From Candidatus Heimdallarchaeum aukensis (lineage in GTDB: Archaea; Asgardarchaeota; Heimdallarchaeia; Heimdallarchaeales; Heimdallarchaeaceae): a stretch of 64,000 bases of DNA. The position numbers were made by a program, and so were the translations under genes. How positions within the stretch are numbered: the first letter of the stretch is position 1; every line of letters begins with the position of its first letter. Shown here in pieces: positions 7,590 to 22,374 of the stretch. Under the pieces are notes generated by a model, which was not told the DNA's origin, did not search any database, and worked only from the letters and a program-made list of their open reading frames with translations. Location: NCBI GenBank assembly GCA_021513695.1, contig CP084166.1, forward strand, positions 1,024,001 to 1,088,000, given 5' to 3'.

Positions 7590-8933
7590 TTATTCCTCAT
7601 GAAGTAAAGGTGTTTCTAAAAGGACATTTGTTAAGTCGATATTGTTAGGGTTTATTTTTTTTGGATAAACAAAAGAGAAGTGGCAGACGTAAGATTTGTT
7701 GTTTCTTATTATTTTGATCCAAACATTTTCTGGTTTTTCCATTATTATTCTTAACATCCATGATGTATTTTCTTCTGATACTCTAAGCAAGGCATAAAGA
7801 GTTCTTTTTTTTAATTCTAGTGTCTTATACTTTTCGAATTTTTCTTTTAACTGTTCTGCGTTCCCCCAAAAAAGGTTGGGAAAAACTTTTTCATCTTTAT
7901 CAAATACTATTGTTATCTCTTTTATTTTATTGTACTCTGAAATATCTTTCAAGATTTCCTTCTTTTCATCAATAGGGATTCTTTGTTGAATACCTCTAGA
8001 TTTTCTTAAAATTTGATCGAGGAGAAACCATATTGAATTGTCCATATATTTAATAAACGAATTAATTTCCATTTTAAATGCAACTTCTGTTTTTTGTATT
8101 TCTACATTACCTTTTTTATTTATCCAACCGTTTATTTTAAAATAAGAAAAACGAGGATCGACATATTCGAAAGATTGTTTGGGTGGAAAGGTTTTTCCAT
8201 TTTTTCTTGCCAAAGTTATTGCATCTTCTATCCATAATTTGAAATTGGTATTTGCTGACCTTGCGGGAATTTTGTCAATAATAACCCATATCTCATCGTT
8301 ATTGAAATCCAGAACTTTTTTACCACTATGTGTAACAGTATTACGTAAGTATAGAAACACACTGAATGCAAGTGATGGATTGATATATTTATCTGAATAG
8401 GGCTCGTAATGTCTAATTAGTTCATCAAAAATACGTTCATACCTATATCGTTTTAATTCGGGAAGATTATTTAAATACGCTTCTGTGAATCTTGAAGTTA
8501 GTTCCAAAAGTTCCAGACCAGCTGAAACATATGTTTCAAAGAGACATATAAAAAGGAACTTTATAGTTGGTATTTTAGTCCAATCAAATCGTATTTGATA
8601 ATACTCTATTTGGTCTCTTACTAATTGGAAGTACGCAAGTCTATATTTAATGCTGTTTAATGTTTCAATATACCTTCCTTTTTTCACTAATTCATTAATA
8701 TGAAAAACTAGTAAACTGTAGTCTCTTGATTCGTTATGTGCTTCCAGATAGTATGAAAACATACTCAAAACGCCAAGACTTGTATCAAGAACATGCCGAG
8801 AAATACTAATTTCTTTTTTTTCTTTTTTTTCTTTTAACGAATTAAAAAACTCATATTCGTTAAGCAAAATTTTTAACAAAAGTTCATGAGATTCTTTACT
8901 TTCTATTTCTTGCTTATCCTTATTTTGATTCAT
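7590..8933 (-). CDS. Hypothetical protein, 447 aa.
   Basis: Long ORF inside the direct-repeat-bracketed cassette. No motif recognised by eye. Confidence 0.5.
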   Translation of the reverse strand: MNQNKDKQEIESKESHELLLKILLNEYEFFNSLKEKKEKKEISISRHVLDTSLGVLSMFSYYLEAHNESRDYSLLVFHINELVKKGRYIETLNSIKYRLAYFQLVRDQIEYYQIRFDWTKIPTIKFLFICLFETYVSAGLELLELTSRFTEAYLNNLPELKRYRYERIFDELIRHYEPYSDKYINPSLAFSVFLYLRNTVTHSGKKVLDFNNDEIWVIIDKIPARSANTNFKLWIEDAITLARKNGKTFPPKQSFEYVDPRFSYFKINGWINKKGNVEIQKTEVAFKMEINSFIKYMDNSIWFLLDQILRKSRGIQQRIPIDEKKEILKDISEYNKIKEITIVFDKDEKVFPNLFWGNAEQLKEKFEKYKTLELKKRTLYALLRVSEENTSWMLRIIMEKPENVWIKIIRNNKSYVCHFSFVYPKKINPNNIDLTNVLLETPLLHEE

Positions 8934-9083
8934 TTGTTATTAATATTATTTTATAACAAAATAAAAAAGTTTAGTTAAATATTACTGTGCAATTCTTCCT
9001 CTATTTTGATAAATAAATGAACTAGAATAATTTTCTTTCCAAGAATAAACTGCCTTTAAGGATAGTTAATAAGTAGTTAAAGG

Positions 9084-9125
9084 TTTGAATATTATCCTTT
9101 ACTTTTTTCCAGCTCTAACCCTCTC
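9084..9125. repeat. Copy 2 of the 42-bp direct repeat.
   Basis: It matches 6625..6666. It is immediately followed by the CT-rich tract 9126..9300. Confidence 0.8.
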
Positions 9126-9300
9126 CCCTCTCCCATCTTTACAATCCTTCTTTCCCCTGAAATTATTTTTTTTGTTTCCTTTTTCTATATTCTCTTTTCT
9201 TTCTAACCAACCTTATACTCTTTTTCTTTACCTTTGTTCTTGTTATTGCTTTTGTTACTGTTTTTAGTCCTAGTTCTGTACTATTAGTTCAGTCTCTTTT
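9126..9300 (+). repeat. Polypyrimidine (CT-rich) low-complexity tract.
   Basis: Seen directly as cctctcccctctcccatctttacaatccttctttcccc..., with the same compositional style as 700..960. ORF 9085..9267 is an artefact. Confidence 0.7.
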
Positions 9301-9500
9301 TTAGGATAATCTGTGGATAGTAATTCTTCAAGAAATTAGAGGAAAAATATGAAATCAATAATAAACTTTCTCTAAATTGTCTTAAGGTCTTCTTCTAGTT
9401 ATAACCTCCTTACAAGAAGATGCTTTACTTTGCAACAAAATGAAAAATAAACTAAAGAAACTATTCATAGGGTTTAAATACTTATTTCTCGTATAGGCTA

Positions 9501-10637
9501 ATGATGGAAATAAACAAAATTTATCTTAAAGATTGTATAGAAGGTATGAAGGAACTTCCTGAAGATAGCATAGATTTAATATTTGCAGATCCACCATATA
9601 ATCTTCAATTGAAAAATGAATTATATCGACCTAATCAGTCATTAGTGGATGCTGTAAATGATGAATGGGATAAATTTTCATCATTTGAAGAGTACGATGA
9701 TTTTACAAAAAAGTGGTTATCAGAATGTAGGAGGGTGTTAAAAAAAACAGGTTCTATATGGGTAATAGGGTCGTATCACAATATATTTAGAATCGGAAAA
9801 ATAATGCAAGATTTAGGTTTCTGGATATTAAATGATATCATTTGGATAAAAACAAACCCTATGCCAAATTTTAGAGGTACTAGATTTAATAATGCACATG
9901 AAACTCTGATTTGGGCTTCGAAAAATGAAAAAGCTAAACCTACTTTTCATTATAAAGCTATGAAGGTATTTAATAATGATAAACAAATGCGAAGTGATTG
10001 GTATATTCCAATTTGTATAGGAAAAGAAAGGTTGAAATTAAACGGAAAAAAATTACATTCTACACAAAAACCTGAAGCATTGCTATATAGAATAATAATA
10101 TCAACATCAAATGTAAATGATATAGTGCTTGATCCTTTTATGGGTTCAGGTACTACAGCTGCAGTAGCAAAGAAACTAAGAAGGAATTTTATTGGTTTTG
10201 AAACAAATGAAATATATGTAAAAGCAGCAAGAGAGAGAGTTGTTAAAGTCATACCCATGGATCCTGACATTTTGGATTATAAAGTGGAAAAAAAACCACC
10301 AAAAGTTCCTTTTGGTACTTTAGTAGAACATAATTATATTAAAGCTGGAGATTGGCTTTATTCAAAAGATATGAGATATAAAGCAATAATAAAAGCAAAT
10401 GGGTCAATTGAATATCAAGGTAAAAACGGTTCTATTCATAAAATTAGTGCTCAAATTTTAAATAAAAAAGCAAATAATGGATGGGATTTTTGGTATGTAA
10501 AAGAAAACGATAATCTTGTATCGATTGATACTATTAGAAGAAATTATGCAAGTAAAAACATGAATTATATGAATGATGAAATAGATATGAGAAATAAAAA
10601 AGTAACAGACAAACTTTTAACTAATTACTTGGAATAA
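9501..10637 (+). CDS. CcrM/M.HinfI-family beta-class N6-adenine DNA methyltransferase (probable GANTC specificity) with the CcrM-type C-terminal domain.
   Basis: Motif IV DLIFADPPYNLQL precedes motif I VLDPFMGSGTTAAVAKKL. Near-colinear matches to Caulobacter CcrM as I recall it include WVIGSYHNIFRIG, LGFWILNDIIWIKTNPMPNFRGTRFNNAHETLIWASK, KQMRSDW, HSTQKPEALLYRII, and C-terminal PKVPFGTLVE...GSIHKISAQIL...NGWDFWYV. Confidence 0.9.
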   Translation: MMEINKIYLKDCIEGMKELPEDSIDLIFADPPYNLQLKNELYRPNQSLVDAVNDEWDKFSSFEEYDDFTKKWLSECRRVLKKTGSIWVIGSYHNIFRIGKIMQDLGFWILNDIIWIKTNPMPNFRGTRFNNAHETLIWASKNEKAKPTFHYKAMKVFNNDKQMRSDWYIPICIGKERLKLNGKKLHSTQKPEALLYRIIISTSNVNDIVLDPFMGSGTTAAVAKKLRRNFIGFETNEIYVKAARERVVKVIPMDPDILDYKVEKKPPKVPFGTLVEHNYIKAGDWLYSKDMRYKAIIKANGSIEYQGKNGSIHKISAQILNKKANNGWDFWYVKENDNLVSIDTIRRNYASKNMNYMNDEIDMRNKKVTDKLLTNYLE

Positions 10638-10642
10638 TCTTC

Positions 10643-11512
10643 GTGCTTACTAATTATCTTCCCTATGAAGTTTTTAAAAGAATATTAACAAAGACAATCT
10701 TTCAAAATGCTAAAATAAGTTTATTAGAAAAAGTTGCTAAATATCCTTCAAGATATACAGGTTTATTTAGGCCTACCAAACCTAAATTAAAATTAATCCA
10801 GAACATTACTCAATCAAATGAAATTCTATTTGGCGATGCTTTTGAGATCATAATTAATGAATATTTGAATAGATTAGGTTTCTCTCCAATTAAAAAAAAT
10901 TATTCCTATAATGGAAATGACTTAATGTTTGATCAGATTGTAGGAAAAGAAAATACTATTATTTACATAGAACAAAAAATAAGAGATGATCATGATTCAA
11001 CAAAAAAAAGAGGTCAAATAGAAAATTTTGAGAAAAAGGGTGAATTATTATTGAAACTATATCCTGATTTCAAAATTACTGGTATAATGTATTTTATAGA
11101 CCCAAATTTAAAGAAAAATCGAAGATATTATATGCAAGAATTACAAAGAATAAGTACTCAATTTAATTTTGAAACTCATCTCTTTTATGGAAAAGAGTTT
11201 TTTGAATGGATAGGAAAAGATGAAATCTGGTTAGAAATAACAAGCTATTTATCAAAGTGGAAAGAAGAGATACCTGATTTTCCCACAATTAATTTTGATG
11301 AAAATCCCGAAGAATCTTTTGAGGAAATCAAGCATCTACAACCTAATTTACTGATAAAGCTTCTAAGAAATGATGCAATATGTAAGGAGATTTTTCCCGA
11401 ATTGTTCCCGGAAAAAACGACATTAAATCTACTTCTGGAATACTATATTCATGAAAGAGAAAAAAATAAGACTAATACAATGGTTATTGAACATTTAAAA
11501 AAAGTGTTGTGA
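10643..11512 (+). CDS. Putative Type II restriction endonuclease cognate to the CcrM-like methyltransferase.
   Basis: GTG start 6 nt after the methyltransferase stop. A candidate PD-(D/E)xK core lies at DLMFDQIVGKENTIIYIEQKIRDD (D...ExK). No other homology recognised. Confidence 0.45.
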   Translation: MLTNYLPYEVFKRILTKTIFQNAKISLLEKVAKYPSRYTGLFRPTKPKLKLIQNITQSNEILFGDAFEIIINEYLNRLGFSPIKKNYSYNGNDLMFDQIVGKENTIIYIEQKIRDDHDSTKKRGQIENFEKKGELLLKLYPDFKITGIMYFIDPNLKKNRRYYMQELQRISTQFNFETHLFYGKEFFEWIGKDEIWLEITSYLSKWKEEIPDFPTINFDENPEESFEEIKHLQPNLLIKLLRNDAICKEIFPELFPEKTTLNLLLEYYIHEREKNKTNTMVIEHLKKVL

Positions 11513-12322
11513 AAAAAAATCTAAAATCACAAAAAAGATCTATATAATTGTACGATTTTTTGTTCAAAAAAAAACTATCACCGTTTGATTGACATGTTAT
11601 AAAAATAGTTTCTGAAGAAAAACCTTTACATCCATTAACTCTCAGATGCTTTATACCATTATTTTGAAATAGATACTACATGCTTGAATTAAAATGAATT
11701 TCTGGACTAGTTGATTTTCCTTTCTTAATTATAAATTATATAATTTTCCTAATTGAATTGAGAGATAATTTTTCTTTTTCAAACCAAGCATGATCTATTA
11801 TAGGAGGTTTTAAACGGAGAAGATTCAAACTTTGGATATATATTCTACATATATTATAAATATTGTTTGATATTCATCATTTGAGTTTCTCAATAAAAGA
11901 TTATTCCATATTTTAGTTTCTAGTTTGAAGATTATGAATTATTTAATAAATGTCTTAAATTCGGGATACCTTTCTTTCATATTTTCCTCAGAATCATGTA
12001 ATGGAATTTGTAGTGTTCCTTTTACTAATATTCTATATTCCTCAAGTTTAAGAATATGATTTGATTATAGCAGTGTGCCATTACTTGTTATGTTTGTTGT
12101 TATTTTTTTCGATAAATGTAGAGATTCTGGTAAAGAAATAATGTTTTCAGTTATGAATTGTATATTATCATGAAATCTAACCTTCTTAATTTAACTCAAA
12201 TTAATTAAGTAGTAAAGATAATAAAAGAAGGTATCTAAATGTTTATTGCGGAGATTTATTATAGGGTTTTTAATTTTCATCTCCCACATCGAATAATACG
12301 CATTTATCAATAAATCCTTATA

Positions 12323-13342
12323 TTAATTAGAGCAATATGAAGTTTTATTTGTGAAAATTTCAGGATCATCTAGTTCTCTCAATCTTTTAAGTGTAACACT
12401 TTTCCATTTATCATAAAAATCAACTAAAATACCTTCTTTTTCCTTTAATGTTGGTTTTCCTGTATCATCATCCATAATAAATTCAAATCCGTAATCAATC
12501 TTAAAATTAAATTGATCTGTATGCAAAACTCTTTCATGAGGAAACTTAATATCGTTATCCAAAGATGAACAAAAATTATAATGTCGAACTTCAATATGAA
12601 TTGATGAGTTTGAATATAAACCAAGCCAGTCCATTATATTTTTCTTTGTTGATTGAGGATTATATCTATTTGCTTTCGGTGTTGTAGTACAAATAATAAA
12701 ATTGCCATTTCTTATATTCTCCTTTTCAAATTGTTTTACTAACCAATTTAATGTTTTATAGTGTCGCTTATTATTAACTAAATTTACACCAAGATATCTG
12801 TCCACAATCATTACTTCCTTTGCAAATCTGAATATCTTTTTGATAAATCTTGAATGCACTTCTGTTAAATTATTTAATTCTGCTAAGTTTAATGATGTAT
12901 TCTGTATTTTATTGTAGAAATCTATTTCTGTAATTAATTCCTCTGATACATAGCTACTACTCAATTTTCCAATTTCACACTTATTTCTACAATTATTGTA
13001 AGGAAGTATTATCCAATCTGGATTTTCTCTGCTTTGAATTTCACAATAAGCTATACATTCATCTTTTTTTTTCTTTCCTTCAATTTTAATTTCAATTATT
13101 CTTCTATTATTTTGCATATTCGAAAGCATTTCTTCTATGATGAGTCTTTCTTCTATTGGTATAAGTGAAAGGGTTTTTGATTTAATAGGTAAACTAAAAC
13201 CTTCTGGTTTTAGAAGTATACCGTTTTTTCTAAGGGAAATCAATAAAGAAACTAATATTTTAGAACGATACATAATAAGCGTAGAATTTTCAGAATTGTC
13301 ATCTAAAATTTTAGGAGATAATACAAATGTCTGTACCGTCAT
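12323..13342 (-). CDS. Partner protein of the ABC ATPase, 339 aa. It carries a Cys4 element with a possibly degenerate HNH-like scaffold.
   Basis: Its start overlaps the upstream stop (ATGA, 13339-13342). ECIAYCEIQSRENPDWIILPYNNCRNKCEIGK has Cx3C...DWIILP...Cx3C, reminiscent of the HNH DHIIP/CxxCN arrangement but with W in place of H. Confidence 0.4.
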   Translation of the reverse strand: MTVQTFVLSPKILDDNSENSTLIMYRSKILVSLLISLRKNGILLKPEGFSLPIKSKTLSLIPIEERLIIEEMLSNMQNNRRIIEIKIEGKKKKDECIAYCEIQSRENPDWIILPYNNCRNKCEIGKLSSSYVSEELITEIDFYNKIQNTSLNLAELNNLTEVHSRFIKKIFRFAKEVMIVDRYLGVNLVNNKRHYKTLNWLVKQFEKENIRNGNFIICTTTPKANRYNPQSTKKNIMDWLGLYSNSSIHIEVRHYNFCSSLDNDIKFPHERVLHTDQFNFKIDYGFEFIMDDDTGKPTLKEKEGILVDFYDKWKSVTLKRLRELDDPEIFTNKTSYCSN

Positions 13343-15249
13343 TCAAATAGCTCCTTATAACTTAGATCAAAGAAATCATCTGGCCATTCATTTATAAAAT
13401 TACCATGTTTGTCAAATTCGATAGGAACTATATTAGCTCCTAGTTTTGTTTTTTCAACAAATATAATTGATATAAGTTTTGGACTTATTTTCTTTTTCCT
13501 AATGAGTTTTTTGATTCGTAGAATTAATTGTTGACTATGAGTTTCAATTATAAATTGTTTTGATAAATTCCTTTTAACATGTTCAACAAAAAATTCTCCC
13601 AATTCAGCTTGCAATCTTGGATTAAGATGTATCTCTGGTTGTTCTATTAAAAGAATTTCATTTGGTTTATTTGACATTATCGTTTGTACAAGAATGGGGA
13701 GAACCTGACTCACACCAAATCCAATATCCGGTAATGCCACCGGATATTTTGTGATATTATCTTCGAATTTCAAGGAATATACCCCTGATAGTTTGTCTTT
13801 ATCTGCTGTATATGAGACTGTGTAACCGATTTTTAGTTTTTTCAACCAATTATTTAGTTCATTTATTTTATTTTTATATGAATAGATAAAATCTGCTGTT
13901 TTTGATCCTGAAACACCTACATTAATAGGTCTACTCCCTCCAAATATGTAATATCGAGATGGTTTATCTCTAAGAGGACCAATAAAAGTAATGCTCTTCA
14001 TCAATTCAATGAATTGATTTCTATTCTCTTCAGTCACGTCATAATCAAAATATAAATTCTTTTTTCCATGTTCAAGTTTAAAAAACGTGTTGATTTTAAG
14101 TAATTCACCTTTAATTGGATTACCAACAAATTCAATAGATAAATTATGATGAATAAACTTAATTAATTTGTTAATTAGATCTGTTTCTATCTCCGATGGG
14201 TCTTTAAACATAATAATTCTAAATAATTTCTCAATTTTCATATTAATTGATTCTTCAATTAGAATCCTAAAATCATGATCGATTAAAATATCATCTTTTA
14301 TTTCATTTAAACCAATTTCAACCTTTTTGCAAATTTTTTCAATTATTTTATCTTTTTTTAACAGAAAAAATTTGTTTTTTTCTAATTCTCTTCTAATTTT
14401 TTCTACTATATTTTTAATTTCAATTTTTTTCGCTTGACTATTTTCCTGATAAATTTTCAATATAGTTTCTATAGGAACTTTAATATTAATCGTAGGAATT
14501 TTATCGTTATCAAAATGAATCTTCTTTTCAATTTTTTCTTCTATATCAAAGACATCAATTTTAAATTTCTCTTCATATGCAGAATAAGAGATTATAAATG
14601 GTGTATCAATGTTTTCAACAATTGTGATTTTCTTGTATCCTCCAGATATTGACTCTCTCAAAAACGGTAAAAGAATCATCGGTATAACTCTTTCTGTACT
14701 TATTTTTGAAAGAGAACAAGTATATTTTATCCGCTGATAAATCCTAGAATTTTCTGTTTTGCAATATACTAATTTTGCTGAAATTAATGATTTTTCAATC
14801 TTTTTGCCATAATTTCTAGATATTCCCCATATTATTTTATCTAAAAGAATGTAAGGTCTCTCTTCAATCTTTTTTGAAATGTATGTTAAGTTGATTTTGA
14901 ATTTTTTAAAAATCCTTTCCTTGTATGGTGAAATATGAAGATAATCTGAGGATCGCCACTGTAACCCAATTTCAACTCTTTTTCTAGTATCATGACCAAA
15001 AACAATTTCTTCGAAAGGTCCAATATCAACATAAGTCCCTTGATGTAGAAGAACATTATTTGGGTCATTGTCTTCTATAGTTTGTTTTAAGGCTAAAAGT
15101 GATTTCAAAATAGATGATTTTCCACTACTATTTTCTCCAAATATCAGTGTAATCGGTTTACATGGTATTCTAGAGCCCTTTTTTCCAAAGGCTTTAAAAT
15201 TTCTTAAATAAATTTCAGTTAACATGAACAAACACCAAGTTTCTTTCAT
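13339..15249 (-). CDS. ABC/OLD-type ATPase of the AAA_15/AAA_21 kind, similar to the ATPases of Septu PtuA, PARIS AriA and AbiL.
   Basis: N-terminal LTEIYLRNFKAF...ITLIFGENSSGKSSILKSL is the Walker A. C-terminal ILLIEQPEIHLNPRLQ is the Walker B/D-loop, and FIIETHSQQLI is the H-loop. A long insert separates the two halves. Confidence 0.8.
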   Translation of the reverse strand: MKETWCLFMLTEIYLRNFKAFGKKGSRIPCKPITLIFGENSSGKSSILKSLLALKQTIEDNDPNNVLLHQGTYVDIGPFEEIVFGHDTRKRVEIGLQWRSSDYLHISPYKERIFKKFKINLTYISKKIEERPYILLDKIIWGISRNYGKKIEKSLISAKLVYCKTENSRIYQRIKYTCSLSKISTERVIPMILLPFLRESISGGYKKITIVENIDTPFIISYSAYEEKFKIDVFDIEEKIEKKIHFDNDKIPTINIKVPIETILKIYQENSQAKKIEIKNIVEKIRRELEKNKFFLLKKDKIIEKICKKVEIGLNEIKDDILIDHDFRILIEESINMKIEKLFRIIMFKDPSEIETDLINKLIKFIHHNLSIEFVGNPIKGELLKINTFFKLEHGKKNLYFDYDVTEENRNQFIELMKSITFIGPLRDKPSRYYIFGGSRPINVGVSGSKTADFIYSYKNKINELNNWLKKLKIGYTVSYTADKDKLSGVYSLKFEDNITKYPVALPDIGFGVSQVLPILVQTIMSNKPNEILLIEQPEIHLNPRLQAELGEFFVEHVKRNLSKQFIIETHSQQLILRIKKLIRKKKISPKLISIIFVEKTKLGANIVPIEFDKHGNFINEWPDDFFDLSYKELFE

Positions 15250-15317
15250 TCACACTCTTGATGAATTCTTTACAAATTTATGTAATAAAAATAAAAACTT
15301 TTCTGGAATATCTATGT

Positions 15318-18300
15318 TTAATTTTCACTAAGATATTTTATTATTTTAGGAAGTAGGAAAACATTTTTTCTTAATGTTGAAAAACTTAATGCTTCTCCTA
15401 GAAGTGTGTGAACTTGTTTAGGTATTTTTCCAAACATTGGATGACTAACTACATATCCATAGGTAAATGATTTGAAATTCCCACTTTCTATTATTACACG
15501 CATTGGCTCTTCCAACAAGCTCATATCACCAAAGTAAATGCTTGATAATGGTGATGATAATGCTCTTAAACGTTCAATAGTTGCTTTTTCAATATCTTCA
15601 CTCAAAAAAATATCACTATCTTCTATTATATCAAGAGTTATTAATAAATATGAATCACCAGCAAATATAATTGGTGGACTTAAAAGTTTACTAAATTTTT
15701 TTGCTAATGAAAATGCATTATTTGTTGAGTTGATAAAATGATATAAGCTTGGATATTTTCTACTTTTTTCATCTTTTTTTACATTTCTTCCATAATAAGT
15801 TCTGACCATCTTTTCTAAGTAGTTTAATCCTTTATTTATTGTGTATAAGTTTCGAGGTTTTTCCAGATAATTAAGTATTTCTTGTTTATCTGTTTTGTCA
15901 TAAGCTTTTACTGTTACACGAAAACCTTTTGCTATTTGTTGATTAGTGACTTTATAGAATAGATAAGAAGGTATCGTCATATCATTCCATCTACCTGCTT
16001 CATTAAATGTAAGTATAAATTCAGGAGAGGGATATAATCTGAAATGGTTTAATGCTGTTTTTATAGATGGAAAATAATTTTTCAAAAAATCATCTAAATA
16101 GATATTATCAACTGAAAATGCTCTTTTACTAACTCTTCCAAATAGACTGAATTTTCTTTTAGTTCTTTCCGAAATCTTGCTTCTGCTAAAAACTGGTAGG
16201 ACATGTTCATTATTGTTGATTAGTATATCTCTAATAAAACTTCTTAACTGATGAAATTTGATATTTTGATCTTTTAGAGTGGCATTTTTGTTCAAAGCAG
16301 AAATCATAGACACTAATCTTGGCTTCAAATCTGTTTCTTCTCCTCTCATCCTTTTAATTACTTGCCTAAAATATTCTAGATTGATCATAGAATCGAAATA
16401 AGTTGTTGAGCCATAGTCTGTTTTTAAGGGGAAAGGAGGAAGGATAATTAAAATTTCATGCCATGAATATGTAGTTCCAAATGCTAATGAAGAGGTTCCT
16501 ACTATATTTTTTTTAGGTGTTTCTTCTATTAATAATGTGTCACGAGAATCGTGAGTAATAGAAACTGCATCATAATTGTTTAAATGGAGGTATTCTACTA
16601 ATGAATCTACAAACTGTTTATTGTTAACATAAAAAATTACTTTACCCTCTTGTAAATATTTTTCAAATGATTTTTTTCTATTGTCAATTCGTGATTTTTT
16701 TACAAGCTTGTCTAATATTTCAAAAATTTTTTTAAAATTTATTTCCTCTTCATATTTACCCTCACAAATAAATGATGCTGCACAATAATCAATATTGAAA
16801 TTTAAGAGATATCTCAGAAAAATACCTTTAATCGGAGTATTAATTATTTTAAATTCCTCTGGTTCTTGAATGTCTTCATTAAAATTAGTTATTTGAAATT
16901 GTGTCATCCATTTTTTTGAATTTGGATCAACTAATGTGTTCAACATGGAAATTACTAATTTCATACTTGTGATAGATGCATCAGTAATTACAAAGCGAGG
17001 AACATTTATGTTATTATTTACCATTAATCGATTCCTTGCTTCTATTAGTAAATCAATAAAATTTTTTGCAACTGTTGGTCCAGAATTAGTTAATTCATCA
17101 AAGATGAACATATATGTCTTTGTGAATAGTAATTTCCAATTGTATGATTGTTTTAGAAAATAATCTAAAGCTTGGGAAGATACTAATATAACTTTTTGTC
17201 CTTGTTTCTCTAGTGCTTTTTTCAATCGATTTCCTGTTTCACTGAAAATTGTTTCATACCCCTTAAGTGTTATTGGATCTCTTATTAACTCTTTTTCTCT
17301 TTTACCAATAATTAATTCTAAATGGACATTTTTTTCTATATCATTTTTGATTAATCTTTGAATTTTATCTTTAGTTTGTATTAAGGTTGTAATTCTTGGA
17401 CAGAAATACAGAATAGTAAAGTTTTTTTTAGTTTTTGCAAGCTTTTTAATATAATTTGCAATCACATAATTTTTTCCAACACCTTGAGATGAACCATTTA
17501 TTATTATATTATAACAATCATTGGTTAATAATTTTAGGAAGTTCTTCTCATGTTCTTTTCTTACATTTTCTATTTCGTTTCTAGTAACACTCTGTCTTTT
17601 TACGATAGAAGGTTGAATCTTCTCTTTAGTTTCAGGATAAGCTTCAATAAATTCTGTTTTTTCATCCTTCAAAATTATTTTTAACTCCTCTCCTCTAGTT
17701 CCTTCAAAAAAATACATTCTTTTATTGTTTTTTTCTTTTATTCTCATCGATATTTTTCCACTCATAAATAATTCAAAAATTCGTCTTCTTTCAAAATCTT
17801 CCAATATATATTCTTTCTTTTTACCAAATTCTGTTTCCACTATAGTACTAGGAATCAAGTTACATAGAAATCGTAATATTTTCCTTAAATCGGTTTCAGA
17901 TTTAATATGAAAAGAAGATATAGCTCCAGGTAAAACTATTTGAACTTCAATCTCACTGTTATAATTTTGAGTTTCGTTATAATATAATTGTGCATAGGAG
18001 AATACTTTTAAGTATTTCTGGAGAGCTGTTGCAATTCTGTAAAAATCTCTTGCAGGAATCTTTTTGTTCTTATGTAAATTTAGTTTTCTTAGTTTTTCCT
18101 TTGAAAAATCTTCGACAATTAATTGTTCAATATAATCTTGAAGTAATCGCTCTTTCGTCATATTTACAAAAAATATATATGATTTAATATCGCCAATACA
18201 TAAGAACTCGATTTGGTTCATTTCATAATTAAAGGCTTCCTCTTGATTGTTAGATGTTTTCTTTCTAATGATTATAAAATCAGGTTTTTTTTCCCTAAAT

Positions 18301-18779
18301 GTTGGTTCTATAAATATTTCTAATTCTGTATCTGGTTTTTTCCATTCAAGATTTGCATTTAGTAATACCGATATTGAACATTGAAATCCTGTTTTTATCA
18401 TTCTTAAGGCTGTATATCCCACTTTTTGTTCTTCCAAAATATCTGTGATTTCTCTTTCATCAATCTTTAAGTCTGTTCTAAACATTTGCCTTTTTTGAAA
18501 ATAATTTTTAAATATTAAGTACGAATCTGTGATGCTTGATTTTCTGATAAATAAATCGATTGCTTGTTCTATCTGTATTCCAATTACATTTTCAAGATAT
18601 GAATTCAACTCTATTCTATTTTCAATATCTAAAATAGGTGGTTCAATTCTTATGCCTACAAAAGGTTTAATGTTGTAGCATTTTGATTTTGACGCAATTC
18701 CAAGAAAGAATCCAAATTCAAGTGCTTCTCCATATATTAATGGTGCTATTCTATTAATTTTCTTTTCGTAATTTACCAT
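15318..18779 (-). CDS. Large (1153 aa) P-loop NTPase or helicase-like protein with a possible N-terminal PD-(D/E)xK nuclease fold.
   Basis: Central Walker A IIINGSSQGVGKNYVIANY, Walker B-like YMFIFDELTNSG, and a possible motif III at VITDASIT. The N-terminus has ELEIFIEP...KKPDFIIIRKK...EFLCIGDIKSY (E..PD...DxK-like). Its start lies 1 nt after the stop of the upstream 973-aa gene. Confidence 0.55.
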   Translation of the reverse strand: MVNYEKKINRIAPLIYGEALEFGFFLGIASKSKCYNIKPFVGIRIEPPILDIENRIELNSYLENVIGIQIEQAIDLFIRKSSITDSYLIFKNYFQKRQMFRTDLKIDEREITDILEEQKVGYTALRMIKTGFQCSISVLLNANLEWKKPDTELEIFIEPTFREKKPDFIIIRKKTSNNQEEAFNYEMNQIEFLCIGDIKSYIFFVNMTKERLLQDYIEQLIVEDFSKEKLRKLNLHKNKKIPARDFYRIATALQKYLKVFSYAQLYYNETQNYNSEIEVQIVLPGAISSFHIKSETDLRKILRFLCNLIPSTIVETEFGKKKEYILEDFERRRIFELFMSGKISMRIKEKNNKRMYFFEGTRGEELKIILKDEKTEFIEAYPETKEKIQPSIVKRQSVTRNEIENVRKEHEKNFLKLLTNDCYNIIINGSSQGVGKNYVIANYIKKLAKTKKNFTILYFCPRITTLIQTKDKIQRLIKNDIEKNVHLELIIGKREKELIRDPITLKGYETIFSETGNRLKKALEKQGQKVILVSSQALDYFLKQSYNWKLLFTKTYMFIFDELTNSGPTVAKNFIDLLIEARNRLMVNNNINVPRFVITDASITSMKLVISMLNTLVDPNSKKWMTQFQITNFNEDIQEPEEFKIINTPIKGIFLRYLLNFNIDYCAASFICEGKYEEEINFKKIFEILDKLVKKSRIDNRKKSFEKYLQEGKVIFYVNNKQFVDSLVEYLHLNNYDAVSITHDSRDTLLIEETPKKNIVGTSSLAFGTTYSWHEILIILPPFPLKTDYGSTTYFDSMINLEYFRQVIKRMRGEETDLKPRLVSMISALNKNATLKDQNIKFHQLRSFIRDILINNNEHVLPVFSRSKISERTKRKFSLFGRVSKRAFSVDNIYLDDFLKNYFPSIKTALNHFRLYPSPEFILTFNEAGRWNDMTIPSYLFYKVTNQQIAKGFRVTVKAYDKTDKQEILNYLEKPRNLYTINKGLNYLEKMVRTYYGRNVKKDEKSRKYPSLYHFINSTNNAFSLAKKFSKLLSPPIIFAGDSYLLITLDIIEDSDIFLSEDIEKATIERLRALSSPLSSIYFGDMSLLEEPMRVIIESGNFKSFTYGYVVSHPMFGKIPKQVHTLLGEALSFSTLRKNVFLLPKIIKYLSEN

Positions 18780-18780
18780 T

Positions 18781-21702
18781 TTATATCAACTTCTCCTGAA
18801 TTTTTATTCTGTTTATCCCTTTGATGAAAATACTTGGATCTAGCAACTTTTTGGAATCAGGATATGGTAGATGAAATAACCTTTTTAAACTTTCAATACT
18901 AATTCCGCCTTTTTCATCTCCGTAAATGGTTAATATTCTTGAGAATTCTTTCAAATAAGAAATAGTTTCTTCAGACGATCTTTCATATGGTATTACAGTA
19001 AAAATAAGAGACGGTTGTAAATCTTTTTTAATTTCACCCTCAAGCTTTTCTTCTCTTCTCGAACCAAAAATCAACATTCCAACTATTTTTCTCTTATCTC
19101 TTCCATTATATTTCAAAGGTTCATTAATATATATAATTAATTGTCTATTTGATTTTGACTTTGGCAGTAATTTTCCAATTTCTCTTGAAGGAGTAAAAAT
19201 AGCTTTTTCATTAAAAACAAACAATGGAATTTTTAATTGTTTATTCTTTTCAAATATCCAGTCAATAATGGTATCTTCTTTACTAAGATCACTATCTTGT
19301 ATTTTTCTATTTACAGATTCAGATATAATGTCATAAGTGCTCTCCGTTCTTGAACTATGTTTAGCTCTTATTAAAATTAGAATATCTTCTTTTGCTAATT
19401 CTGATACTATTAGTGAGGCTAATTCAAAATTTATATCGCATCCTATGTTTCCAAATGAATCTTCTATAAAGTTTTCCTCCATTACATTAATTTCTCGTTC
19501 ATCAGTTAGGTGAGCATAAGCTGCGATATTTCTTATGTATCTTTGTTCTTCTTTAATTATTTCGACCCATTTTTCTGATGAAAGAGAAAGTAATAATATA
19601 TCTTTTGTTTTTATTAATTTATCAAGAGCTTTATCATGTAGAGTATATCCCGCTGTAGAAGTATTTTTTAAGGAGTGTGAAGTAAAATACCATTCATCCA
19701 TAAATAATCTTCCAAAAGCTTTATTTATATTATGATAATTTGATAAAAACTTGTACAAATAGATACCAGGTAAAGCAATTTTTTTCTCTTTGGAAGCTGT
19801 TTGATAAGTAAATAATTCTACTTTACCTATGTTATCAAAAGTATAAAATGAAAAAGGTCCATCGAAGTATTTTAAGATTTGATTTTTTGACCATACTACA
19901 TTCCCGTTTTTTCTAATACCATCTTTTGTCATCATTTGAACATTAATACGTCTTCTTGACCTATTGATTGTACTTTTATTTTGCCAGATTTTCTTTATTA
20001 TTTGCCTAATCTCTTTTTCTTTATATTCTTTTGATAAAGAATCAAAAGAAAAGCCTTGAGAATATTCGAAATATTTTGTTTCCCATGAGTGTACTCCTTT
20101 TAATAACATATAATAAAATTCATGAAAAAGACTTCTTTTTACTTTCTTCGATAAATATGGGATAAACCAAATGTTATCTCCTCCTTTTACAAATCTAAAT
20201 TCATGATTAAGCCTTGTTAAAGATTGTTTAATATCAGGGTCATTAATTAGGTATAGTATTGCACTATCTATAACTGCCTTTAAAGATGCAAAAAATCTAT
20301 AATTGTCGTTGTTTAGTCTTTCTCTCAAATCTGTATTAATTCTTTTGTGATATATTTCAATTTCTTCTGGAAAAAATTCAGTATTTGCTATAAGATAAGT
20401 GATAAATTCTTGTAATCCATATTCTTTATCTCCATACCAGATAGATGTTTTATTTTTTTCATCAATTCCTTCATTCTTTTTTAAATAAATATTTTCATGA
20501 ATAAAAACTATCAATCTTTTTGGATTTATTTGTTTGGGAGAGATGTTTATCTTTTGAATTCTTTCTAATTTCTCTTTTTTTGCGCATAAGTAATGATCAA
20601 ATTCTGGAAATTCACAATTTTCAACAATTTCCTTTAGTTTATCAAATAATTCTTCAAAATCTTTATAACTTATTTCGTTAAAACCTAAAAGTATTGAAAA
20701 AGCGAATAATTTATCTTTAATATCTTCAACCATTTCTAAGAATTCTTGGTCATTTGTATCCATTTGTTCCATTATCCATTCTTGAAGGTTAATGAGTAAA
20801 GGCAAGATTGTTTTTTCTTTATTCCAGCCTTCTCCATATATTCTGAAACAATAAAGGTTTTTATCATAATCTTCATGAAGATTAAGAAATTTTGGGCAGC
20901 TTCCTACAGAGATTAATCCAGGAAAAGAAGGAAATGACATACCTTTGAAACTATGATTTATTATTTTCTCAAACAGAGTTTTCTCTTCAGCTGATAATTT
21001 TTTAATAAATTTATCATTCTTAAGTAAGACGGTACATTCTTTCTTAAAATCTAAATATCTGTCGTATGCAGCATTACGAACTTCTTCATTTCTAATGTAT
21101 TTTATATAATATTTTACTAATTTTTTCTGAACTGGATTATTAATAATGTTTGAAAATTGCTCTGTAGCTTTAATGGAAACTTCTTCTGCTTTTAAAGCTG
21201 TTTTAAAAAATGAAATTGGAATCTCATTTTCATGAATTTTCTCATTTGCGTTTCTAAATCTTGATTCATTTTCTTGAATTTCAATATAAGAAAAAGTAGA
21301 ACCAACTTCTTCTGATTTCCATTCATCTCGCTTTGCTTTATCCCATAATGTTGCTGGATTTTCATACTTTTTTTCTTTTTTCATTAACTCTTCTTTAATT
21401 GTGATTATAACTTTGTCGCTTATCTCTAATAATGTAGTATTAGGACTTTGGACAATTCTAGATTTTAGCTTTTTCACCAGTAACCAATTTTGTAACGAGG
21501 GATCAGATATTTCATTAATTTCTTCTAATGTATTTTGATACGCTTTGTGAACTATTCTACAAAAATCATCAAAGGGATATGTTATAGTACAAAGCATATC
21601 AAAGAATTTTTTATCCTGAATATATTCTGAAATTAATTTTGAGAAGAATATAGACCAAAATTCTTTATCTATTCCTTCTGTTAGTTTTACTAATCTAGCC
21701 AC
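18781..21702 (-). CDS. Large (973 aa) hypothetical protein, first gene of the four-gene operon.
   Basis: Uninterrupted ORF with no P-loop and no motif recognised by eye. It is preceded by a 670-bp AT-rich promoter region. Confidence 0.5.
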   Translation of the reverse strand: MARLVKLTEGIDKEFWSIFFSKLISEYIQDKKFFDMLCTITYPFDDFCRIVHKAYQNTLEEINEISDPSLQNWLLVKKLKSRIVQSPNTTLLEISDKVIITIKEELMKKEKKYENPATLWDKAKRDEWKSEEVGSTFSYIEIQENESRFRNANEKIHENEIPISFFKTALKAEEVSIKATEQFSNIINNPVQKKLVKYYIKYIRNEEVRNAAYDRYLDFKKECTVLLKNDKFIKKLSAEEKTLFEKIINHSFKGMSFPSFPGLISVGSCPKFLNLHEDYDKNLYCFRIYGEGWNKEKTILPLLINLQEWIMEQMDTNDQEFLEMVEDIKDKLFAFSILLGFNEISYKDFEELFDKLKEIVENCEFPEFDHYLCAKKEKLERIQKINISPKQINPKRLIVFIHENIYLKKNEGIDEKNKTSIWYGDKEYGLQEFITYLIANTEFFPEEIEIYHKRINTDLRERLNNDNYRFFASLKAVIDSAILYLINDPDIKQSLTRLNHEFRFVKGGDNIWFIPYLSKKVKRSLFHEFYYMLLKGVHSWETKYFEYSQGFSFDSLSKEYKEKEIRQIIKKIWQNKSTINRSRRRINVQMMTKDGIRKNGNVVWSKNQILKYFDGPFSFYTFDNIGKVELFTYQTASKEKKIALPGIYLYKFLSNYHNINKAFGRLFMDEWYFTSHSLKNTSTAGYTLHDKALDKLIKTKDILLLSLSSEKWVEIIKEEQRYIRNIAAYAHLTDEREINVMEENFIEDSFGNIGCDINFELASLIVSELAKEDILILIRAKHSSRTESTYDIISESVNRKIQDSDLSKEDTIIDWIFEKNKQLKIPLFVFNEKAIFTPSREIGKLLPKSKSNRQLIIYINEPLKYNGRDKRKIVGMLIFGSRREEKLEGEIKKDLQPSLIFTVIPYERSSEETISYLKEFSRILTIYGDEKGGISIESLKRLFHLPYPDSKKLLDPSIFIKGINRIKIQEKLI

Positions 21703-22374
21703 AAACTTCTCTCCTCATAGGTAATTGTACTAAAACTTATCTTGAATGTTAAACAATTTCTTTTTTTATTTATATAATTTTTGATAATAAATGTTTTCAT
21801 CTTTTATTCATTTATTATCTGTATTCAATAAATTATTCATGAGTTTAGTTTTATCTTTTTAATATTAATCAAAAATATGCTATATGTTTAACTTTGACGA
21901 CTTAGAGTAATCTCAAATTGTTGTTATAGTAGTTAGATTTATTTTTTATTTATATTCACCCACTAAAGTTTTATTTAACTCGCTTCAACTCTTTAAATTA
22001 AATATGTCTAGTTGATAGATACATTTTCATCCTCCTATACGCTTGAAAATACTAGATGATTCTCTAGTTTAAATTATATGGTTAATGTAAGAAGATATAC
22101 AAGTTTAAATGCCATAAAACGGAGACGTTGGCCATGAAACAAAAATAAATAGAATACTGTTGTTTTCTAAGTGCAAAGAAAAATATATAGAAGTATAAAA
22201 TACAAAAATTAGTGTAAGAGAAAAATAAGAAACTCAACAAGAATTTACAAAAAGTAGTTTAGCATAAAAAATAAGAAAGTATTTTATTATGGTGCAATTG
22301 CTAAGACATGACAAAATAATATGGTTGTTTGGTGATTTAATTAGAAAAATTTAATAACCAAAGTAATTAAAAAA

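Follow-up and report, generated by a model that had tools for sequence, protein, structure and literature searches.

The locus examined here lies in a 64,000-nt stretch of contig CP084166.1 (hereafter the window, to which all coordinates refer) from the Asgard archaeon Candidatus Heimdallarchaeum aukensis, and it raises the question of what kind of partner is coupled to its ABC ATPase. Gene C (13339..15249, minus strand; 636 aa as the longest ORF) is followed by gene D (12323..13342, minus strand; 339 aa) with a 4-bp ATGA overlap, the TGA stop of gene C lying within the ATG-A of gene D. An earlier sequence-only reading had recognized this translational coupling, an ATPase of the PtuA/AriA/AbiLi type and a Septu/PARIS-like logic, and had proposed that gene D encodes a divergent or inactivated HNH nuclease or a different Zn-binding effector. 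The motifs that it quoted for both genes were recovered by translation of the minus strand, and the coupling was confirmed. The partner turned out differently. The two genes are not an HNH nuclease pair but a rare two-gene relative of Menshen (NsnABC) from an Asgard archaeon; they probably form a self-contained conflict (defence) module akin to the NsnB-NsnC core of that system, without the ParB/DUF262 sensor NsnA.

Judged from its sequence, gene C is an ABC ATPase of the OLD/AriA/PtuA type. Pfam matches were obtained for AAA_21 (6e-18), AAA_15 (3e-14) and DUF3696 (1.3e-5), and the PADLOC matches to AriA (2e-22), AbiLi (5e-14) and, more weakly, GajA and PtuA (7.8e-8) agree with the type first assigned. 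The best PADLOC matches were to NsnB (1.7e-58), HEC-03B (1.9e-52) and PDC-M55A (9.3e-51). The translation contains a Walker A motif, G38-ENSSGKSS-46 (15112..15138, minus strand), the Walker B/D-loop LLIEQPEIHLNP at residues 533-544 (13618..13653, minus strand), an H-loop, E569-THS-572 (13534..13545, minus strand), and a helical DUF3696 tail at the C-terminus (residues 588-635; 13345..13488, minus strand), recognized from the Pfam match and the alignment. Among the eight partner ATPases aligned, S45 of Walker A, I535-E536-Q537-P538 of Walker B, all four H-loop residues (E569, T570, H571 and S572), and E621-W622-P623 and F626-F627 of the tail are invariant, as are a DxGxGxSQVLP signature and a GPxRxxPxRxY loop with its Arg. 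The EQ of Walker B stands where a DE dyad is canonical, and this ATPase might be a poor hydrolase. A long insert at about residues 90-420 is poorly conserved. Since M9 (MLTEIYL...) is where both the homologues and the Pfam match start, the true start of gene C is probably at 15225 and not at 15249.

An exhaustive HMMER search gave a gene D family of 26 sequences with 18-48% identity to the window protein; a word-indexed homologue search had found one relative only, and its repeat with the 26-sequence profile three proteins only. Genome contigs were scanned with an alignment of a 10-sequence subset, and a metagenome scan added just one locus. Family members occur patchily in Asgard archaea, Cyanobacteria, Verrucomicrobia, Abditibacteriota and Alphaproteobacteria. 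In each of the 12 related loci, taken from metagenomes and genomes, the gene D homologue is immediately preceded by a gene C homologue; most keep the 4-bp overlap, and a distant Azospirillum pair has the same gene order. The pairing is thus obligate and not a chance juxtaposition.

Gene D itself gave no significant match in Pfam, PADLOC and NCBIfam profile scans, and profile A2 retrieved only chance antibody matches from PDB sequences. It has two domains. An AF2 model of the full length has a pLDDT of 79, and Foldseek against the PDB returned the correct folds at high probability, with weak E-values. The C-terminal domain (about residues 158-325; 12368..12871, minus strand) is MIT_C-like and belongs to the PLD superfamily, having the PLD alpha/beta fold, a His motif and an acidic residue on an early strand; SauUSI, NucT, Zucchini, Nuc and BfiI, nucleases of this fold with a single motif, were strong matches. 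The first PLD-like strand ends in D181-R182-Y-L-G185 (IVDRYLG motif; 12788..12802, minus strand), in which D181 and G185 are found in 26 of 26 family members and R182 in 25. A single PLD-type motif, H269-E-R271-V-L-H-T275-D276-Q277 (12512..12538, minus strand), reads HxR(x)4D, that is, HKD with Lys changed to Arg; H269, R271, T275 and Q277 are each present in all 26 sequences, while position 276 is Asp in 18 and Asn in six. With W200 and G285, these make up the family-wide invariant residues (D181, G185, W200, H269, R271, T275, Q277 and G285), all of which sit in the predicted PLD-like domain. Its motif has a counterpart in the 'HDR motif' of PB-PLD1/MIT_C (PMC12065111). Some relatives gave profile matches, to Pfam MIT_C (four of 26), PADLOC NsnC (seven of 26, colinear over the PLD-like half) and BrxL (one of 26); those to NsnC and MIT_C, with E values of 1e-5 to 3e-4, are weak links and are confined to these relatives. 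As in Nuc, NucT, Zucchini, BfiI and the nuclease domain of SauUSI, each chain has one His-containing motif, implying an active site completed by dimerization. The single-HKD nucleases have the canonical HxK(x)4D(x)6GSxN, whereas gene D has HxR(x)4[DN]Q and an extra D181-R182 on the first strand, invariant but for R182 in one member.

The N-terminal domain (about residues 1-155; 12878..13342, minus strand) is PIN-like, and PIN domains made up all of the top 12 fold matches when it was searched alone. Only M1, P10, R81, C96 and C118 are at least 90% conserved within it, and none of its acidic columns is conserved in the family alignment, whereas PIN nucleases coordinate metal through four conserved acidic residues (D-E-D-D). 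An active PIN nuclease was rejected and the domain is read as inactive, because the acidic residues are not conserved. Within this domain lies the cysteine cluster that had suggested an HNH scaffold (C96, C100, C118 and C122, with D109-W110, in CIAYC...DWIILPYNN...CRNKC; 12977..13057, minus strand). Orthologues lacking the Cys pairs had been named as evidence against such a scaffold, and this was partly borne out, as the closest orthologue has CKNYL in place of CIAYC; yet C96 and C118 are each found in 24 of the 26 sequences and C122 in 21. The fourth cysteine shifts, to the column before C100 in eight members and to five residues upstream of C96 in many. On this alignment the cluster is a real, conserved feature of the family, located in a domain predicted to be non-catalytic. 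It probably binds metal, and a structural zinc site would fit better than an Fe-S cluster, in view of how the cysteines are spaced and how the fourth one shifts. The proposal of a different Zn-binding effector is half right: the cluster is real, but the family-wide invariant residues are those of the PLD-like domain.

The same alignment bears on the HNH proposal, in which gene D would be a PtuB-like partner carrying a divergent or inactivated beta-beta-alpha-Me nuclease whose Cys4 zinc scaffold has Trp in place of the catalytic His. A local CxxxC...DW...CxxxC pattern does exist in gene D, three of its cysteines are conserved and PtuA models match gene C, albeit weakly. W110, however, occurs in only two of the 26 family members and D109 in nine, and the DWIIL segment is the predicted beta-strand 4 of the Rossmann-like PIN fold. 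HNH, DUF4435 and Toprim profiles had no match at E<=1 to gene D or the 26 relatives, and the fold matches included none of these either. Gene D has neither the beta-beta-alpha metal finger, catalytic His and profile match of HNH/PtuB proteins nor the fold, conserved Glu and DxD of the Toprim proteins (PARIS AriB, OLD). The HNH proposal is refuted for practical purposes.

The closest known relative of the pair is Menshen, which was shown experimentally to have antiphage activity in Solibacillus silvestris and has been analysed comparatively (Li et al., NAR 2025; PMC12065111). Gene C has the features of NsnB: an AAA_15/OLD-ABC core, the DUF3696 tail, E-Q/N for D-E in Walker B, GxG for SGG in the signature and Arg for the Q-loop Gln. 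In NsnB the Walker B DE is likewise replaced, by EN (PMC12065111). Gene D has those of NsnC, an inactive PIN-like domain and a C-terminal PB-PLD1/MIT_C-type effector domain directly downstream of the ATPase, an architecture described in Menshen as inPIN + PB-PLD1 (PMC12065111). A type II R-M pair flanks the two genes within the window, as methylase-nuclease pairs are reported to adjoin many Menshen loci.

Four differences from Menshen were observed. NsnA (ParB-DUF262 + ParBDB), encoded in Menshen immediately upstream of the ATPase, was found neither in the window, where the 1153-aa and 973-aa proteins encoded upstream have no DUF262 match at E<=1, nor in those related loci whose upstream sequence is long enough for a verdict; there is no DUF262 family member among the called genes of L001-L007, and scans of the neighbouring genes in L008-L010 and L018 gave unrelated proteins. 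Because NsnA is absent and the ATPase lies directly upstream in all related loci, the pair appears to be an autonomous two-gene module. Gene C also scores about equally against NsnB, HEC-03B and PDC-M55A, which places it in a separate ATPase clade. The conserved cysteine cluster is not mentioned for inPIN families. Finally, the pair comes from an Asgard archaeon, whereas the phyla listed in the Menshen survey are all bacterial (PMC12065111).

PARIS (AriA/AriB) and Septu (PtuA/PtuB) resemble the pair in having two genes, one for an OLD-type ABC ATPase that acts as sensor or gatekeeper and one for the nuclease that it binds, and the Septu/PARIS-like logic suggested earlier was upheld in that the ATPase is coupled to a protein that is probably an effector. 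They differ in the ATPase clade, gene C having the DUF3696 tail, and in the effector fold, which is Toprim/DUF4435 in PARIS and HNH in Septu but PIN-like plus PLD-like in gene D. The model of AriB release and dimerization in PARIS is the closest mechanistic analogue of what is proposed here.

Most likely, genes C and D constitute an ATPase-gated nuclease defence system. Gene C would oligomerize, and its paired DUF3696 tails would grip the PIN-like domain of gene D, much as the NsnB tails clamp the NsnC inPIN domain in an AF3 prediction of NsnB4-NsnC2 (PMC12065111). The single PLD-like domains of the gripped protein would be kept apart or otherwise inactive. The ATPase may sense a trigger, probably by way of the insert at about residues 90-420, and change its nucleotide state. 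The effector would then be released or re-posed, and two PLD-like domains could come together in a two-His active site of the kind seen in Nuc, NucT, Zucchini and BfiI, which would cleave nucleic acid. The replacement of the HKD Lys by Arg, and the Asn for the motif Asp in six of 26 members, count against this reading.

The same architecture could instead carry a MIT_C-like domain that is not a nuclease, binding or hydrolysing membrane phospholipids or serving as a non-catalytic binding module, so that the pair would act on the membrane or merely recruit. The MIT_C domain of MITD1 does bind membranes (PMC11962514). In MITD1 it is joined to an ESCRT-III-binding MIT domain and serves membrane binding in cytokinesis (PDB 2YMB/4A5Z); in gene D its fusion partner is a PIN-like domain, and the protein is coupled with an ABC ATPase. 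The strict invariance of H269, R271, D181, T275 and Q277 over 26 divergent sequences favours catalysis over mere binding, and the strong fold matches to single-motif nucleases point the same way. The known partners of OLD-type ABC ATPases, in Septu, PARIS, Gabija and AbiL, are nucleases. The Menshen effectors are predicted to be nucleases too (PMC12065111). A non-nuclease role is plausible but unlikely. It is very unlikely that genes C and D close a four-gene system in which the sensor role of NsnA falls to the upstream 973-aa protein and ResIII-type helicase (1153 aa; 15318-21702 for the two genes). All four genes lie on one strand, with 68 bp from the helicase stop to the gene C ORF, and with NsnA missing a sensor must be sought elsewhere. 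The upstream pair nevertheless recurs by itself. In L013 the genes after it are convergent and an ATPase/PLD pair is absent; L014, whose contig breaks off within the helicase gene, shows the recurrence only. Homologues of either protein were found in none of the 12 related loci, and the upstream neighbours in L002, L012, L006, L009, L010 and L018 are unrelated. The 973-aa protein and the helicase were therefore rejected as members of the system.

Decay, or a housekeeping role such as DNA repair or segregation, would agree with the sparseness of the family (each of the ten 90%-identity clusters consulted has one or two members) and with its degraded copies, both genes being fragmented in L011 and the ATPase truncated in L008. 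Both window ORFs are intact, however, with every invariant residue present, and a patchy spread in islands that also carry R-M, TA, TIR, CRISPR and integrase genes is what mobile defence genes, and not housekeeping genes, typically show. Decay or a housekeeping role is highly improbable. The neighbourhoods of the relatives include TIR/LD_cluster islands, TA genes, an integrase and type III CRISPR-Cas loci. Two copies of the pair lie inside the latter, which suggests a possible accessory role. A bolder proposal is that the pair represents an undescribed autonomous branch of DUF3696-ATPase immunity, free of a ParB sensor, spread between bacteria and Asgard archaea, repeatedly recruited as a type III CRISPR-Cas accessory and armed with a Cys-cluster PIN-like effector whose MIT_C-type PLD domain is an active nuclease; taken as a whole, this is doubtful. 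We know of no MIT_C-type domain with a known catalytic activity. If this one were active, it would provide the first enzymatic function for a fold reused in eukaryotic MITD1 and BREX BrxL, and would raise the possibility that a prokaryotic defence effector, present in Asgard lineages, gave rise to the membrane-binding domain of MITD1.

The locus indicates that a Menshen-type NsnB-NsnC core can stand alone without a ParB/DUF262 component, in modules that surveys anchored on NsnA would miss, and it extends NsnB-NsnC-like modules to Candidatus Heimdallarchaeum aukensis. Gene D gains a specific two-domain assignment in place of 'hypothetical protein' and loses an HNH label that was tempting but wrong. 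Its family offers a compact test case of whether MIT_C-type PLD domains, among them those of MITD1, the BrxL C-terminus (also MIT_C-like) and PB-PLD1, are enzymes, and the pair one of how a DUF3696 ATPase gates an effector. The PADLOC candidate systems HEC-03 and PDC-M55 are likewise compact operons in which a DUF3696 ATPase occurs with no NsnA, but their partners are unrelated to gene D, HEC-03A being a 177-aa protein followed by an RNA ligase. Gene D had no match among the PADLOC HEC and PDC models, and PDC-M55B (352 aa), the partner of a Bacillus plasmid DUF3696 ATPase, was rejected as a homologue (hhalign probability 0.1). HEC-03 and PDC-M55 are often found on plasmids, near Abi or TA genes.

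Gene C (13339..15249, 636 aa) and gene D (12323..13342, 339 aa) were both confirmed as minus-strand reading frames, and every motif quoted for them in the sequence-only reading is present: in gene C the Walker A GENSSGKSS (residues 38-46), the Walker B/D-loop LLIEQPEIHLNP (residues 533-544) and the H-loop ETHS (residues 569-572), and in gene D CIAYC (residues 96-100), DWIILPYNN (residues 109-117) and CRNKC (residues 118-122). The two genes overlap by ATGA and were shown to be an obligate, translationally coupled pair. A gene C homologue lies directly before a gene D homologue in all 12 related loci (eight metagenomic or short-assembly contigs and four bacterial genomes, of Verrucomicrobiales, Abditibacteriia, Oscillatoriales and Hormoscilla), usually with a 4-bp overlap. 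The true start of gene C is probably at 15225 (M9), since both the Pfam match and the homologues begin there.

The nucleotide-binding motifs of gene C are intact and followed by a DUF3696 tail (Pfam AAA_21 6e-18, AAA_15 3e-14, DUF3696 1.3e-5, the last C-terminal at residues 588-635). Its top PADLOC models were NsnB (1.7e-58), HEC-03B (1.9e-52) and PDC-M55A (9.3e-51); AriA, AbiLi, GajA and PtuA were much weaker. Because true HEC-03B and PDC-M55A proteins reach 7e-134 and 8e-80 on their own models, gene C is, judged by sequence, a separate DUF3696 ATPase clade outside NsnB, HEC-03B and PDC-M55A alike. When gene C was aligned with seven partner ATPases of related loci, a Walker B I-E-Q-P (E-Q in place of the canonical D-E), a signature D-x-G-x-G-x-S-Q-V-L-P, a G-P-x-R-x-x-P-x-R-x-Y loop, E-T-H-S and a C-terminal E-W-P..F-F were invariant in all eight, while the long insert at about residues 90-420 was poorly conserved. 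These invariant motifs are the peculiarities published for NsnB, the ATPase of the Menshen system (DE to EN, Q to R, SGG to GxG; PMC12065111). The invariant Walker B 'EQ' points to an ATPase that may be slow and act as a switch.

Gene D is 100% identical to a Candidatus Heimdallarchaeum aukensis protein annotated as hypothetical, and Pfam, PADLOC and NCBIfam gave no significant match to it. A word-indexed search of 5.8 billion proteins recovered one relative (48% identity), and HMMER, run exhaustively over 1.84 billion cluster representatives, recovered 31 proteins (E<1e-3), which measure 290-375 aa apart from four of 127, 216, 267 and 1859 aa. Ten relatives that were checked fell in 90%-identity clusters of 1-2 sequences, the named ones being 'hypothetical'. 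The AF2 model built on a 26-sequence alignment (mean pLDDT 79, pTM 0.81) matched PLD2 and MITD1 in Foldseek with probabilities of 0.95-0.99, although with weak E-values. Among the 26 sequences, Pfam MIT_C was matched weakly by four (best 3.1e-4), the PADLOC NsnC model by seven (best 1.4e-5) and BrxL by one (8.9e-5); the NsnC matches run colinearly along the C-terminal domain (e.g. residues 181-319 of relative P0016 with profile positions 126-230). A two-domain fold, PIN-like and then PLD-like, can be assigned with high confidence.

The analysis showed that gene D joins a PIN-like domain, which is inactive, to a PLD-like domain, and that the putative catalytic residues of the latter do not vary. 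All eight positions invariant in the 26 sequences (D181, G185, W200, H269, R271, T275, Q277 and G285) fall in the C-terminal half; M1, P10, R81, C96, C118, F171 and R182 are at least 90% conserved. The spacing H269-x-R271-x4-D276 is that of the PLD motif HxK(x)4D with Arg for Lys, position 276 being Asp in 18 sequences and Asn in six. D181 ends the first strand of the PLD-like domain and H-[D/A/E]-R stands ahead of a later one, agreeing point by point with the published description of PB-PLD1/MIT_C and its 'HDR motif' (PMC12065111).

The proposal that gene D is an HNH nuclease with Trp in place of the catalytic His can be ruled out. No HNH or Toprim protein occurred among the matches listed in either structure search, W110 lies in predicted beta-strand 4 (W110-I-I-L), and it is found in only 2/26 sequences (D109 in 9/26). 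The cysteine pairs fared better, C96 and C118 each being kept in 24/26 and C122 in 21/26, but the position of the fourth varies: only the window protein has C100, the closest orthologue has CKNYL for CIAYC, eight members carry a Cys one column before C100, and in many there is one five residues before C96. C96/C100 start the helix preceding strand 4 and C118/C122 come after it; from this secondary structure the cluster appears to sit at the C-terminal sheet edge, where active PIN domains carry acidic residues. Its most likely role would be to stabilise the PIN-like adaptor by binding a structural metal.

The general idea of a Septu/PARIS-class pair was sound, since these genes operate in the manner of the Septu/PARIS/Menshen class. 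They are likely to be homologous to the Menshen NsnB/NsnC core. NsnA, the anchor of the published definition, is however absent, so the pair is not Menshen by that definition. No DUF262/ParB gene adjoins it in any locus with enough upstream sequence to judge. The published survey was NsnA-anchored and lists only bacterial phyla (PMC12065111), and the pair is absent as a system from PADLOC v2.0.0. It represents an NsnA-less core module that occurs in type III CRISPR loci as well as in an Asgard archaeon. A more distant pair lies on an Azospirillum replicon beside a phage-type integrase: its ATPase matches NsnB at 1.4e-64, and its 358-aa partner, which has IADKF and EHDRF and lacks the Cys cluster, aligns with the gene D profile over 277 columns (hhalign probability 86%, E 4.8e-6).

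Plasmids likewise encode DUF3696 ATPases that lack NsnA, though there the partners are unrelated, and the DUF3696 ATPase is for this reason regarded as a modular 'transducer' joined to differing effectors. In HEC-03 the ATPase is accompanied by a 177-aa protein and an RNA ligase; in PDC-M55 the partner is a 352-aa protein without homology to gene D. HEC-03-type modules are conserved on conjugative or mobilisable plasmids, as in Aeromonas (L015 4374-7002) and Azotobacter (L017 4467-7085), with an ATPase (HEC-03B 7e-134), the 177-aa HEC-03A and an RNA ligase family protein; the Aeromonas module adjoins AbiEii and Hok/Gef genes.

By analogy with AF3 models of NsnB4-NsnC2, and with PARIS and Septu, paired DUF3696 tails of an ATPase oligomer would hold the PIN-like domain of gene D, the gene C insert (about residues 90-420) may sense an invader cue, and a change of nucleotide state would release or re-pose the effector. 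Two PLD-like domains pair for activity in Nuc, NucT, Zucchini and BfiI. With one HxR(x)4D motif per chain, gene D would likewise need such pairing, and sequestration of its monomers by the ATPase would provide a simple off-state. A defence role is somewhat favoured; nuclease chemistry in the PLD-like domain is plausible, at slightly less than even odds, and the pair is a clean test case for enzymatic activity of MIT_C-type PLD domains.

The pair adjoins same-strand type III CRISPR-Cas genes (Cas10/Cmr2, Cmr3, RAMPs, Csx19) in two loci, which are metagenomic (L003 1-10981, L005 1-12239) and have it directly after those genes. Its position in L005, between the type III genes and cas1-cas2, suggests recruitment as a CRISPR accessory module. 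Elsewhere its neighbours are a TIR gene and an LD_cluster protein (L002), Uma2, PhdYeFM/PIN and HipA genes (L006, L007) or housekeeping genes (L008-L010). On the Hormoscilla chromosome (L011 6261-8975) each gene is split into two ORFs (ATPase 188+304 aa, partner 190+135 aa), and in a Verrucomicrobiales MAG (L008 6931-7803) the ATPase is left only as a 290-aa ORF; both probably reflect decay of the copy or frameshifts in the assembly.

In the window, a type II R-M pair (9501-11512, plus strand) is convergent with gene D, about 0.8 kb past its end: an N6_N4 MTase carrying a RAMA domain at the C-terminus (PADLOC MTase_II 1e-171), then an HpyAIV-family REase (NCBIfam 3.7e-73). This fits the methylase-nuclease pairs reported as a frequent Menshen association. 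The stretch ~8000-22000, with the R-M, C/D and helicase pairs, has 24-29% GC against roughly 28-35% over most of the remaining window, which would fit a defence island gained by horizontal transfer. At its edge a 447-aa ORF (7590-8933, minus strand) had no Pfam or PADLOC match and in NCBIfam only a ScpA-like one far below threshold (E 3e-4). The 68 bp that separate the gene C ORF from the helicase stop (15250-15317, minus strand) hold an A/T-rich run, tttttatttttatta. It may be a TATA-like promoter element of archaeal type, from which C/D would be transcribed separately, although such runs are common in DNA of 26% GC.

Upstream of gene C on the same strand (15318-21702, minus) are genes for a 973-aa protein, without a family match, and a 1153-aa ResIII-type helicase, 1 bp apart. 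They were rejected as components of the C/D system, being a conserved pair of their own with no homologues in any C/D locus, and are defence-island neighbours. This pair recurs at 52-61% identity on two metagenomic contigs (L013 7038-13450, L014 3527-8737) and looks like a separate uncharacterised two-gene module; L014 ends within the helicase gene, and in L013 convergent genes follow, with no ATPase/PLD pair. The L013 surroundings include UvrD-like helicase, PLDc_2, nSTAND3 and radical-SAM genes.
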